Virus record (IMG/VR): IMGVR_UViG_2706796752_000001
Location: 1 to 64,000 of that record
Length of the DNA stretch: 64,000 nucleotides
Source: a virus
Lineage: Duplodnaviria > Caudoviricetes
Direction: 5' to 3' (one strand)
The position numbers and the translations under genes were made by a program. Each line of letters begins with the position of its first letter. The stretch's first letter is position 1. A model generated the notes under the pieces. That model searched no databases, was not told the origin of the DNA, and saw only the letters and a list, made by a program, of their open reading frames with translations. This document shows, piece after piece, positions 1 to 2,929 of the stretch.

Positions 1-158
1 AGGTTTTTCTCTGGTATACGCTTCATGCTAGATAGAGTAGATTGCATCCTTGTGTACAAATATATACGAGTATTACAAACTTGTACAGGTGTTTTAAGAG
101 CTCTCACGCTCCGTTACACGTCGTTTTACAAACTAACTGGTACAAATGTATAAGAACA

Positions 159-193
159 ACAAAAAAAGCCCTTCACGACAATGTGAGGGCTTT
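159..193 (-). terminator. Rho-independent terminator-like hairpin
   Basis: AAAGCCCTTCAC-loop-GTGAGGGCTTT preceded by an A run on + (U tail on -). Confidence 0.6.
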
Positions 194-215
194 CCTGCTA
201 TAATGTGGGGTTTGC

Positions 216-294
216 TAGTAGCTCACTGGAATGCAAGCGCAACTCCTAGTAGCTCACTGGAACAGAGCCGAAAATCCTTAGTAGCTCCCTAGAA
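216..294. repeat. Three direct repeats TAGTAGCTC(A/C)CT(G/A)GAA
   Basis: Copies at 216-231, 247-262 and 279-294; periods 31 and 32 bp. Confidence 0.9.
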
Positions 295-358
295 CGCATA
301 GGCAACTGTATGGCTTGTCCTTTTAGCTCATGAGCAATTACGCCCACGGAGCCAATCG

Positions 359-1425
359 CACTATCTGACAATTGTCAGACAATTACGACAACAGGTATCT
401 ACAAAATGTGCATCGACCTGCTTAAACAGAATAGCACATCAAACGACAATAATACAAGCATAGACAAATTAAAAGTTTTTTATACATATTCTGACTAACT
501 AAATATTCTGACAATTAGCAGCTCGTATAAATACCACAGATGAGGCTATTTGTCAAGTTAAAAGAGTATTGCAAATATTCTGACAATAAGAAGGGTATGA
601 GTATTGACAATATTGCTAATAGTCTGACTGTCATAATAGTGCGAATTGTGCTATTGTTCGGATTAGTATAAATAGTCTGATAATTTATTTGAAAACCCTC
701 GGGAAAATAGAGTTAATATTCTGACAATATGAATAGTCTGACAATAATATACGAACGTTAAATAGTCTGACAATTAGAATGTTTGGAACTGTATGAATAA
801 TCTGACAGTTTGAATAGGGTGAATGTTATGAATAGTCTGACAATTGTAAGAGACTGCAATAGAATTAACTGACAATTCAAACTATTCACTCGATTATGTT
901 AGTCAGGCTATTCTAAATATTCTGACAATTGTTTCGGTCGGAGCTGCTGTTAAGTTATCTGACAATTATGACTATTCAAGTTATCAGACTATTTCGAATA
1001 CATTGTTAACTTGACATTTGCGTTGATGTGTGGTAAACGTGTGTGAGCTATTTGTCAGACAATTCAAATAGTCAGACAATTTTGACAATAATAAGATGAC
1101 TAAATATTCTGACAATTTGTGAGCCCTTGGTACTGCTGGGATGAGGGGCTGTTTCCTCTGTACGGGCTGTTAGGAGGCTAGGCAATACAAATACTAAGGT
1201 GATAGCTTAGAATCGCTGTACGGGCTTGTGAGAGCCTTTAAAATAGATTTGACAAATGGATAAATATATGTTATGGGAAGTTATCAGATAATTCTGACTA
1301 TCAGACAATTTAAAACTCCTATTACATTGCATAGGAGTGCGCATATGTGGTTATCATAATAGTATACGTATGTCAAGTAAATCTTATATTCTGACAAATT
1401 AACTGTATATAATATTCTGACAATT
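359..1425. repeat. Array of about 25 copies of 15-bp AATAKTCWGACAATT (CodY-box-like)
   Basis: Exact AATATTCTGACAATT at 502, 916, 1103, 1411; AATAGTCWGACAATT at 761, 831, 1067; AATTGTCAGACAATT at 370; many more 1-4 mismatch copies; CodY consensus is AATTTTCWGAAAATT. Confidence 0.9.
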
Positions 1426-1453
1426 GCGAATATAATTACTTTTTGTCAAAGGC

Positions 1454-1482
1454 TTGTATTATAAGTCGATATATGAGATATT
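1454..1482 (+). promoter_or_regulatory. Candidate early promoter of first gene
   Basis: TTGTAT-17-(TG)GATATT upstream of ORF 1540. Confidence 0.35.
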
Positions 1483-1539
1483 ATAGGAGCAGCAGGGAAA
1501 CACCTTGCTAGCATACATAACGAAGGATGGTAGATTATA

Positions 1540-2040
1540 ATGATGAATACAATTGATATGTTAAATAAAGAGGTTATGGTTACAACTTTAGATGGACGTT
1601 CTTTTACTGGTACAATGGTAGATTTAAATGATGCTGGTAATATTGCATGGGTTGATAATGGTTTGGACTGGTTCCCAATTGACTTAGATAACGATAGAAT
1701 GTCATTAGTACATCCAGTTAAGGAAGAATCTAAAGAAGTTAAACTTCCATATGATGTTAAGAATATTACTGCTATTAAAGCAGAATATAAGGAGGAGATG
1801 TCCGAGCAATGGGAGGACGTTGACTACCATACAGTGATGGTATACAATAACGACGAAGACGGAGAAGAAGTATATGATTGCGAATTCTCTGCATATGACA
1901 CGACTGGTGATTATATGTTCTGCGTATACTTCGGTACGTACTACGATGAGAAGGAAGCGTTGAAGGCTGCAAAAGCGATGCGTACTAAGCTTGCTAAATA
2001 CTTTGATATAGAAGGTGCCGTATCAGTATACACTTGCTAG
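1540..2040 (+). CDS. Early protein with Sm/LSm-like N-terminal domain and acidic C-terminal domain
   Basis: RBS AAGGATGG; LNKEVMVTTLDGRSFTGTMVDLNDAGNI resembles the Sm1 motif; hairpin follows at 2043-2057. Confidence 0.7.
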   Translation: MMNTIDMLNKEVMVTTLDGRSFTGTMVDLNDAGNIAWVDNGLDWFPIDLDNDRMSLVHPVKEESKEVKLPYDVKNITAIKAEYKEEMSEQWEDVDYHTVMVYNNDEDGEEVYDCEFSAYDTTGDYMFCVYFGTYYDEKEALKAAKAMRTKLAKYFDIEGAVSVYTC

Positions 2041-2103
2041 TCGGGGCGTAAAGCCCCTTATAATTAACGCTTGACAAATACTATTATATAAGGATGGGAT
2101 ATT

Positions 2104-2439
2104 ATGAACGCTAATATCGAACTTGCCATTATTGAACTGGAGCAGATTGCCAAACATGCTGAGGTGCTTGGTGATATGTATAAGACTAGACAAACGTACT
2201 CAATTGTATTACCTGCTCATATGCACGTTCATATCATAGACGCTTCGACGTTTATTGACAAGGGTATGAAGGGCGTTAAGCATGATATGGCACTGGTAGA
2301 GGCTACGTATGTATCCAAGCGGATTAGCGCTATTGTGTCCGGCGTAGTTAAGCAGGAGCATAAGACGGATACTGCTATTAGAGACCTGCAAAGAGCGTGC
2401 GAAGACTTGATTGAGAATTTGCGTAAATGGAATAAATAG
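2104..2439 (+). CDS. Hypothetical early protein
   Basis: RBS AAGGATGG, 111 aa, terminator-like hairpin after stop. Confidence 0.75.
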   Translation: MNANIELAIIELEQIAKHAEVLGDMYKTRQTYSIVLPAHMHVHIIDASTFIDKGMKGVKHDMALVEATYVSKRISAIVSGVVKQEHKTDTAIRDLQRACEDLIENLRKWNK

Positions 2440-2466
2440 TATAGGGAGGGGTGACCCTCCTTTATA
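2440..2466 (+). terminator. Hairpin after early genes
   Basis: TATAGGGAGGG-GTGA-CCCTCCTTTATA. Confidence 0.6.
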
Positions 2467-2737
2467 CCCTATTGACAATTATTTTTTTATATGCTTACTT
2501 GACATACTGGTTTAAATGTGGTATAACCCCGCCCCTATCATAAAACCATAAATTTGTCAAGTAGTATTTTAGTCCCAGTCTACCTGAGGTTAAAATTTTT
2601 GGAACTGTGAAAAACTTTGATATATTAGATACTATCTTGTATACCAGTACAATATTGCAGGAGCTAGAACTAACCACGATACAATAAACACGCTAAATAA
2701 CTTTCTTCTCAATATACCCACCCCCTATACTTTTATT

Positions 2738-2929
2738 TTACAAAATTCCTGTTGCTGCTATAAGTACCCAGATGAAAAAAATTACCAGACAAAAAATTAA
2801 AGCTGTAGCAATACAGATTAGAACACTTGTTCCGTCTGCTCGAATACCACCGTTTCTAACGTACTGTCCGAACCTATAGAGGTAATAACTACCTCCTCCG
2901 ATGATAAGTATAACCAACCATAGTCCCAT
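2738..2929 (-). CDS. Small membrane protein
   Basis: Two hydrophobic segments, RBS GGAGGG. Confidence 0.7.
   Translation of the reverse strand: MGLWLVILIIGGGSYYLYRFGQYVRNGGIRADGTSVLICIATALIFCLVIFFIWVLIAATGIL

Follow-up and report, generated by a model that had tools for sequence, protein, structure and literature searches.

Candidate CodY operators interleaved with predicted early promoters in the terminal repeat of a Bacillus cereus-group phage

The left end of the virus record IMGVR_UViG_2706796752_000001 (Caudoviricetes), of which the first 64,000 nucleotides (the window) were analysed, raises the question of whose protein reads some two dozen copies of an operator-like box in the DNA of a large virulent phage, and to what effect. 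The boxes, about 24 in number, 15 bp long and mostly co-oriented on the + strand with the consensus AATAKTCTGACAATT, are packed into positions 359..1425. A sequence-only reading of this DNA had counted about 25 of them, likened them to the boxes of the bacterial regulator CodY and offered two functions, a decoy or a sensor of nutrition. CodY is the nutrient sensor of the host and is loaded with GTP and branched-chain amino acids (BCAAs). The answer favoured here, with moderate confidence, is that the array consists of host CodY operators built into a cluster of predicted early promoters within the terminal repeat. Through it, the phage probably reads the nutrient signal of its host, and it may soak up CodY as well. 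Both CodY as the binder and the activity of the promoters are what we infer from the DNA sequence.

The array stands out by several counts of its motif. The core TCWGACAAT occurs 18 times in the window, against 1.8 +/- 1.2 copies expected, and 16 of the 18 lie within 364-1424. Searched with up to 3 mismatches, the 15-mer AATATTCTGACAATT is found 27 times in the window (5.2 expected), 20 of these matches lying within 370-1425; the boxes of 359-1425 that stay within this limit number 18. Four copies are exact (starts 502, 916, 1103 and 1411), as had been claimed, and the rest of the 158-kb genome holds just a handful of copies of this type outside the array. A motif scan against shuffled controls, which had been suggested as a check on the likeness to CodY boxes, was run with the canonical CodY consensus AATTTTCWGAAAATT. 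At up to 3 mismatches, the array region (350-1440) contained 15 sites and the other 157 kb contained 9 (13.8 per kb in the array and 0.06 per kb elsewhere), whereas dinucleotide shuffles of the array region gave 0.14 +/- 0.39 sites, with a maximum of 2. Of the sites in 350-1440, 5 have 2 mismatches; the count rises to 15 when up to 3 are allowed and to 23 with up to 4, the last compared with 1.2 in the shuffles. Nearly every start listed in the sequence-only reading was recovered; sites 359, 485, 618 and 1288 have 4 mismatches, and sites 898, 907 and 822 are weak (at least 4 mismatches).

The anatomy of the box agrees with what is known of DNA recognition by CodY. In crystal structures of CodY bound to DNA, recognition proceeds mainly by shape readout with few base contacts, to T6/G9' and the outer T/A pairs; T6/C7 and G9/A10 are contacted in the major groove and A1-T3 and A13-T15 in the minor groove (PMC10415144). 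The phage box is a pseudo-palindrome, AATAKTC-T-GACAATT, in which the contacted bases (T6/C7, G9/A10 and A1/T15) are nearly invariant across boxes. In three genera of related phages, positions 1-3, 6-10 and 12-15 carry 1.4-2.0 bits of information, values obtained on sites gathered by their likeness to the box. Two CodY dimers can bind sites overlapping by 6 nt, the 9-bp offset defining double sites, and the authors of the structures proposed higher oligomers on longer runs (PMC10415144). In the phage, the upstream flanks of the boxes carry AAT at -8..-6 and T at -3, which amounts to a degenerate box displaced by 9 bp. Among the spacings of up to 100 bp between neighbouring boxes (n=22), 13 equal 8 mod 9 and 3 equal 0 mod 9 (binomial P ~7e-8 and 6e-7), and spacings of 9k or 9k-1 thus make up 16/22 cases. 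The dominant values are 9, 17/18, 26/27, 35/36, 44/45, 53 and 71, and those of 9 bp recur in this array and in those of sister phages. The 9-bp offset of overlapping boxes pointed out in the sequence-only reading therefore holds, and more strongly than it was first put.

Boxes of the same form are found at CodY targets in bacteria. In Streptococcus salivarius, the CodY box listed for thrC is AATATTCTGACAATT, exactly the phage box, the one listed for codY is AATTTTCAGACAATT, and the boxes of both codY and pgmB carry GACAATT (PMC5966866). In B. subtilis, motif 2 of the strong CodY site II of braB, tATTaTCTGAcAATT, carries GAcAATT (PMC4608796). CodY of B. cereus recognises this consensus too and has a KD of ~250 nM or less for sites with a single mismatch; downstream of promoters, it works as a roadblock repressor (PMC4877379). 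A scan in which each prokaryotic species was represented by a single genome found the exact box to be intergenic in 19/35 matches in Firmicutes and in 9/43 matches in other phyla (Fisher P = 0.004); 401 genomes of Bacilli contained it in 16 cases, against 3 for the reversed control. Genes for LivJ/K-type branched-chain amino-acid binding proteins are classic CodY targets, and the exact box lies 50-90 bp upstream of such a gene in Granulicatella and in one Carnobacteriaceae genome (Lactobacillales). The sites of other regulators (the 0A box of Spo0A, Fur/PerR/Zur half-sites, TnrA/GlnR, SpoIIID, ScoC, DnaA and parS) were rejected for their poor fit in sequence or spacing, a judgement made by inspection.

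The box also recurs in phages that are not related to this one. An exact-match scan of IMG/VR returned five contigs with box clusters (G001-G005), all unrelated to Bastillevirinae. At up to 1 mismatch to AATWKTCWGAMAATT, they hold 93, 38, 52, 35 and 9 boxes, respectively, compared with 0 for the reversed control; mixed in are perfect CodY boxes overlapping at a 9-bp offset, and the sets include exact AATTTTCTGAAAATT and triple runs with this overlap, such as AATATTCTGAAAATTCTGAAAATTCTGACAATT. The boxes are concentrated in stretches of 4-19 kb and, in the two loci inspected (G001 and G002), stand between small open reading frames (ORFs). The nearest cultured relatives of these two contigs are Enterococcus phages (32-38% protein identity); the Enterococcus phages EF1 and Phass-1 have no cluster comparable to those of the uncultured contigs. 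Proteins common to the unrelated contigs and the present phage amount to a few weak matches (22-34% identity) and one small member of the VG64 family, named in Pfam after a mycobacteriophage protein. No plausible DNA-binding protein common to the present phage and the five contigs was found by blastp at E<1e-4, a search that remote homologues may escape. The shared motif is better explained by a common host factor than by a common phage protein.

Two side observations concern these and other uncultured contigs. In the loci inspected, the boxes of the unrelated contigs are often paired around short GC-rich palindromes (e.g. GGCCGGCC), some are flanked by GGAGCTGG, and G001 also contains variants with a TGTGA/TCACA core that are possibly the sites of another regulator. 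In the IMG/VR contig 3300036985_009306, the same 15-mer occurs just after ATG at 589, 1968, 2608, 3591 and 5818; these copies belong to a longer conserved stretch that continues past the box, and they look like a shared coding N-terminus that overlaps the motif by chance, not an operator.

Where the array lies in the genome is indicated by its relatives. The window begins at the left end of a Wphvirus (Herelleviridae, Bastillevirinae). Over its first 3 kb, it aligns with the left ends of >50 Bacillus cereus-group myophages (85-97% identity), those of them assigned to a genus belong to Wphvirus, and its position 1 corresponds to position 1 of these records. The array had been placed in the terminal repeat conditionally, and the relatives back this placement. 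In SBP8a, a repeat_region at 1-2831 is annotated as the direct terminal repeat (2,831 bp), and the report on this phage used it to illustrate the validation of termini by primer walking (PMC5418689). The record of the present genome, 158,100 bp, contains the terminal repeat once only; sister records are ~2.8 kb longer and were each matched twice by a query with the repeat, and that of Darren exceeds the present one-copy record by 2,816 bp. In Goe5, Spock and AvesoBmore, the left-end set of boxes is duplicated at the right end of the genome. On this basis, the left repeat copy is drawn at 1..2816, with a right boundary that is approximate and inferred from relatives. It begins with ~1.54 kb that hold no ORF of at least 60 aa (the absence of such ORFs from the array region, claimed before, is borne out by the ORF list), followed by two small genes on the + strand and then by a terminator and promoter-like elements.

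Within this group, the boxes are conserved beyond their surroundings. In an alignment of ten Wphvirus genomes, whose divergence from the window in the array region reaches ~27%, identity to the window is 0.896 in box columns and 0.800 in spacer columns (Mann-Whitney P = 7e-11). The strong boxes 502, 761, 831, 1103 and 1411 are kept in 10/10 sister phages, and boxes 370 and 916 in every sister phage that can be aligned there; the former (370..384), a perfect palindrome, AATTGTCAGACAATT, overlapped by the weaker box 359, is kept in 9/9. In Bastillevirus (Goe5, Hoody T and Vinny), the box is the commonest 8-mer of the left terminal repeat, and in Bequatrovirus (Spock, AvesoBmore and B4), it recurs in fewer copies amid spacers that are largely unalignable. 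Some array sites in Bastillevirinae have the canonical A at position 11 (Goe5 1200, AvesoBmore 1177). The B. subtilis phage Grass has two exact copies in its repeat, the only two boxes there. Far from the terminal repeat, Spock (KF669662, 108513-108536) and AvesoBmore (108393-108416) carry a perfect canonical 24-nt CodY double site, AATTTTCAGAAAATTCAGAAAATT, which is intergenic and lies ~150 bp upstream of a gene for a 434-aa hypothetical protein; it is absent from the genome of the present phage.

The position of the boxes relative to promoter-like modules speaks to their function. Conserved modules in the repeat consist of WMCTTGACA, a 17-nt spacer (often ending in TGTGG) and a hexamer. A leftward sigma-A-like promoter is predicted on the - strand at 528..556 (-35 at 556-551; TTGACA, 17-nt spacer, TATTTA) and a rightward one on the + strand at 1011..1039 (TTGACA, 17-nt spacer, TAAACG); the two modules, 556 (-) and 1011 (+), are inverted copies (inverted repeat 532-586 / 981-1035). 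With distances taken from the centre of the box to +1, the latter set 7 nt after the hexamer, box 574 is centred at -61 of the leftward predicted promoter and box 979 at -61 of the rightward one. Downstream of the leftward promoter, the pair 485/502 (485..516, +, 17 bp apart) has its centres at about +29 and +11; for the rightward promoter, boxes 1050, 1067 and 1103 (1050..1117, +) are centred at about +10, +27 and +63. Thirteen boxes occupy the interval between the divergent promoters (574..993; starts 574, 618, 671, 715, 732, 761, 796, 831, 863, 916, 953 and 979 and the weak 898). At 1249..1310 on the + strand, a further promoter-like module, TTGACA-17-TATGGG, is followed by the three overlapped boxes 1279, 1288 and 1296, with cores offset by 9 and 8 bp. 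In all, 13 promoter-like modules from the three genera have a box centred at -61; further boxes stand near +10/+11, +23/+27 and +36/+38, and the interval from -50 to +4 of a predicted promoter contains no box centre. Such fixed positions look like the architecture of operators, and the recurrence of -61, +10 and +27 speaks for a role in regulating phage transcription rather than for a pure decoy. The fixed placement of boxes around promoter-like modules makes control of early transcription from the repeat by host nutrition the favoured function.

One detail of the earlier reading found little support in this survey. The last pair of boxes (1385..1425, +; starts 1385 and 1411, 26 bp apart) lies upstream of gene 1, and the second of them had been placed ~30 bp upstream of a candidate promoter of this gene at 1540; no good sigma-A promoter was found within 1425-1539, and the elements that clearly resemble promoters stand at 556 (-), 1011 (+), 1249 (+) and 1376 (-). 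The possibility that the boxes are themselves promoters was considered and rejected: the likeness of CTGACA to a -35 and of TATTCT to a weak -10 is not matched by consistent distances to partner hexamers, and the clear TTGACA-17-hexamer modules have no box within their cores.

If CodY binds the array, the following sequence of events can be proposed. In a well-fed cell, CodY with GTP and BCAAs would fill the strong boxes as well as the weak partners offset from them by 9 bp, and would then sit at about +10 and +27 of the predicted promoters, where it could act as a roadblock or by occlusion, and at -61. Its occupancy would set the output of divergent early transcripts, namely a leftward non-coding RNA and a rightward one toward genes 1 and 2. 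In a starving host, CodY would come off the DNA and transcription would take on another pattern, and the first events of infection would thereby be coupled to host nutrition, much in the manner in which phi29 employs its Spo0A boxes. The direction of this regulation we infer from position: binding at +10/+27 suggests repression, and for binding at -61 even activation is conceivable. That CodY is titrated to some extent is plausible as a side effect, secondary to regulation, since each virion genome carries the array twice and replication multiplies it. As for the two functions offered by the sequence-only reading, the CodY part gains support from candidate sites that match in consensus, in spacing, in bacterial boxes and in unrelated phages; of decoy and nutrient sensor, the latter appears the likelier.

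How closely the array follows known CodY operators can be judged by comparison. The operators of Firmicutes (15-bp AATTTTCWGAAAATT; 24-nt double sites, e.g. at hutP, ureA and braB) share with the phage boxes their length, their pseudo-palindromic form and the contacted bases, and they likewise have a weak partner at a 9-bp offset; some phage boxes are identical to the letter to bacterial ones that have been reported. The boxes downstream of predicted starts occupy roadblock positions, as at ybgE, nhe and hbl. Bacterial promoter regions, however, contain one to five sites, compared with about two dozen in 1.1 kb of phage DNA, and the phage array is dominated by a single asymmetric, co-oriented variant (A4, C11).

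This last difference belongs to a set of observations that weigh against the CodY reading. Co-orientation is strong, with 15/18 good boxes on the + strand, and C occupies position 11 in ~88% of copies and is nearly invariant in Wphvirus; a symmetric CodY dimer predicts neither the co-orientation nor the near-fixed A4/C11 signature, which may reflect duplication history or a second factor. Duplication of a box together with its promoter could yield the co-orientation, the A4/C11 signature and the fixed -61 position, all without selection for position. The dominant spacing class of strong boxes is 9k-1 and not 9k, and one extra base pair between overlapping sites lowers CodY cooperativity in vitro (PMC10415144). 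A continuous CodY filament is therefore not implied, and the array looks rather like a series of separate 24-nt double sites, with a unit of 35 bp (24 + 11). The predicted -10 hexamers are poor in Wphvirus (TAAACG, TATTTA); in the orthologous modules of Bastillevirus and Bequatrovirus, the -10 is TATATA. Finally, other Herelleviridae that infect CodY-bearing hosts do without the array: none was found in phiAGATE, SPO1, the staphylococcal phage K or Bc431v3 (Caeruleovirus), the last of which infects the same host, B. cereus.

The signature and the strand bias also speak for a phage-encoded binder. The boxes would then be operators or iterons of an early repressor, a replication initiator or a packaging protein, and their likeness to CodY sites would be coincidence or mimicry. 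The near-invariant A4/C11 is kept in phages of B. cereus and, in Grass, of B. subtilis. Searches for such a protein argue in the other direction. HTH_CodY was not detected in the phage, which thus shows no CodY-type helix-turn-helix (HTH); the product of gene 1 matches no DNA-binding family, that of gene 2 is a four-helix bundle that matches no DNA-binding fold, and neither has informative matches in Pfam, PHROG or Atlas (the single-sequence structure model of the gene 1 product was too poor for use). No candidate for a repressor of the SPbeta SPBRE type was found by blastp to be common to this phage and the five unrelated box-bearing phages, and the exact box stands at canonical CodY targets in bacteria. 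A phage protein as the reader of the boxes is thus considered doubtful. A pure DNA sponge, in which the array would mainly titrate CodY and derepress host genes for amino-acid supply with no role in phage transcription, is also unlikely, somewhat more so than a phage protein. It would explain the ~14 good sites per kb, the two copies per virion genome that replication amplifies and the many boxes in 600-950 that are far from any predicted promoter. It leaves unexplained why boxes hold fixed positions around promoter-like modules in three genera while the promoter cores are left free, why those of unrelated phages extend over 12-19 kb of small-gene intergenic regions and are not gathered in one block, and why a related genus of B. 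cereus phages dispenses with the array. In its strongest form, in which the thousands of predicted high-affinity boxes of a replicating phage would strip CodY off the host chromosome, the sponge appears improbable to us. If true, it would switch on genes for amino-acid synthesis, peptide uptake and proteases for the benefit of the phage, and would amount to a takeover of a global regulator without any protein, evolved independently in several lineages of Firmicutes phages.

Explanations that do without a regulator fare worse. A role in the handling of DNA, as a packaging or terminase site, a replication origin or a region of the T5 type at which injection stops, could be read into the site of the array, a non-coding part of the terminal repeat close to the physical end, and into its make-up of many short repeats. 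The array begins ~360 bp inside the end, though, and stops ~1.4 kb before the other boundary of the repeat, leaving the cut sites unmarked; neither DnaA boxes nor, in the composition profile, a marked AT-rich stretch beside the array was noticed, features that were not specifically searched for. In unrelated phages, moreover, copies of the box are dispersed through numerous intergenic regions. A structural role is therefore regarded as very unlikely. Least credible, to the point of being nearly dismissed, is a neutral remnant, left by tandem duplication of a 35-bp unit and now without function: a 35-bp spacing does turn up repeatedly (761/796/831), and there are families of longer repeat units, but the boxes are significantly better conserved than the spacers in the ten aligned phages, and the identity of the box is kept across three genera whose spacers cannot be aligned.

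Comparable systems exist outside CodY. The nearest one with experimental backing is that of phi29 and Nf, in which Spo0A boxes allow a host master regulator to repress early promoters and replication (Castilla-Llorente, Meijer, Salas; PMC2731898). There, as is proposed here, a virulent Bacillus phage carries sites for a global host regulator of the transition from growth to stationary phase, both at early promoters and near the genome ends, through which the state of the host can modulate the lytic programme. Spo0A~P, however, is active in starving cells and CodY in rich conditions, and the present sites are far more numerous and lie in a long terminal repeat. The E. coli locus datA, which titrates DnaA, is similar in being a dense cluster of sites whose copy number could alter the free pool of a global DNA-binding protein; it differs in being a host locus that acts on the initiation of replication, whereas the phage sites are interleaved with predicted promoters and their titration of CodY is conjectural. 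The untranslated region in the terminal repeat of phage T5 is likewise non-coding, repeat-dense DNA within the long direct terminal repeat of a virulent phage, but its repeats are not known to be CodY-like operators and its function is DNA entry in two steps. No paper linking CodY with Herelleviridae, Bastillevirinae or SPO1-like phages was found in the literature searched. If CodY does bind, three genera of large virulent B. cereus-group phages carry the nutrient-sensing code of their host in their terminal repeats, and several unrelated uncultured phages carry it in small-gene regions. The paradigm of phi29 and Spo0A would then extend to a second global regulator that responds to the opposite signal, plenty, and acts through a much larger number of sites. 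This would matter for the behaviour of B. cereus biocontrol phages in rich and starved hosts, for which the array offers a testable handle, and it would make the array a natural test case for the titration of a transcription factor by replicating DNA.

The remaining features of the repeat concern its predicted transcripts and genes. A putative leftward non-coding transcript of ~360 nt without an ORF would extend over 155-521 (-), from the leftward promoter to a strong intrinsic terminator at 161-190 (-; hairpin 168-190, T-run 161-167). CCAGTGAGCTACTA occurs in it three times (+ strand TAGTAGCTCACTGG at ~216, 247 and 279), and its predicted fold is better than that of shuffles (z = -3.8), while the fold of 1046-1250 is unexceptional (z = -1.4). 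The rightward module would read through boxes 1050-1117 into a conserved GC-rich segment and possibly on to genes 1 and 2. This segment (1118..1275, +) is free of boxes and contains CTGTACGGGCT twice; within it, ~1204-1274 is the non-coding stretch best conserved across the genera of Bastillevirinae, with blastn matches that reach Bequatrovirus. A scan with Rfam for known RNA families gave one sub-threshold match only. Gene 1 (1540..2040, +) encodes 166 aa (phrog_2236) and gene 2 (2104..2439, +) 111 aa (phrog_2782); the latter product, with homologues in close relatives only, is predicted to be a simple antiparallel four-helix bundle (predicted local distance difference test, pLDDT, 90) and not an HTH protein. 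Another promoter-like module, with the hexamer TAACCA, lies on the - strand at 1348-1376. Several WMCTTGACA modules face no gene, and two more of them are found beyond gene 2, at 2499-2527 (TATAAC) and 2532-2560 (TAGGGG).

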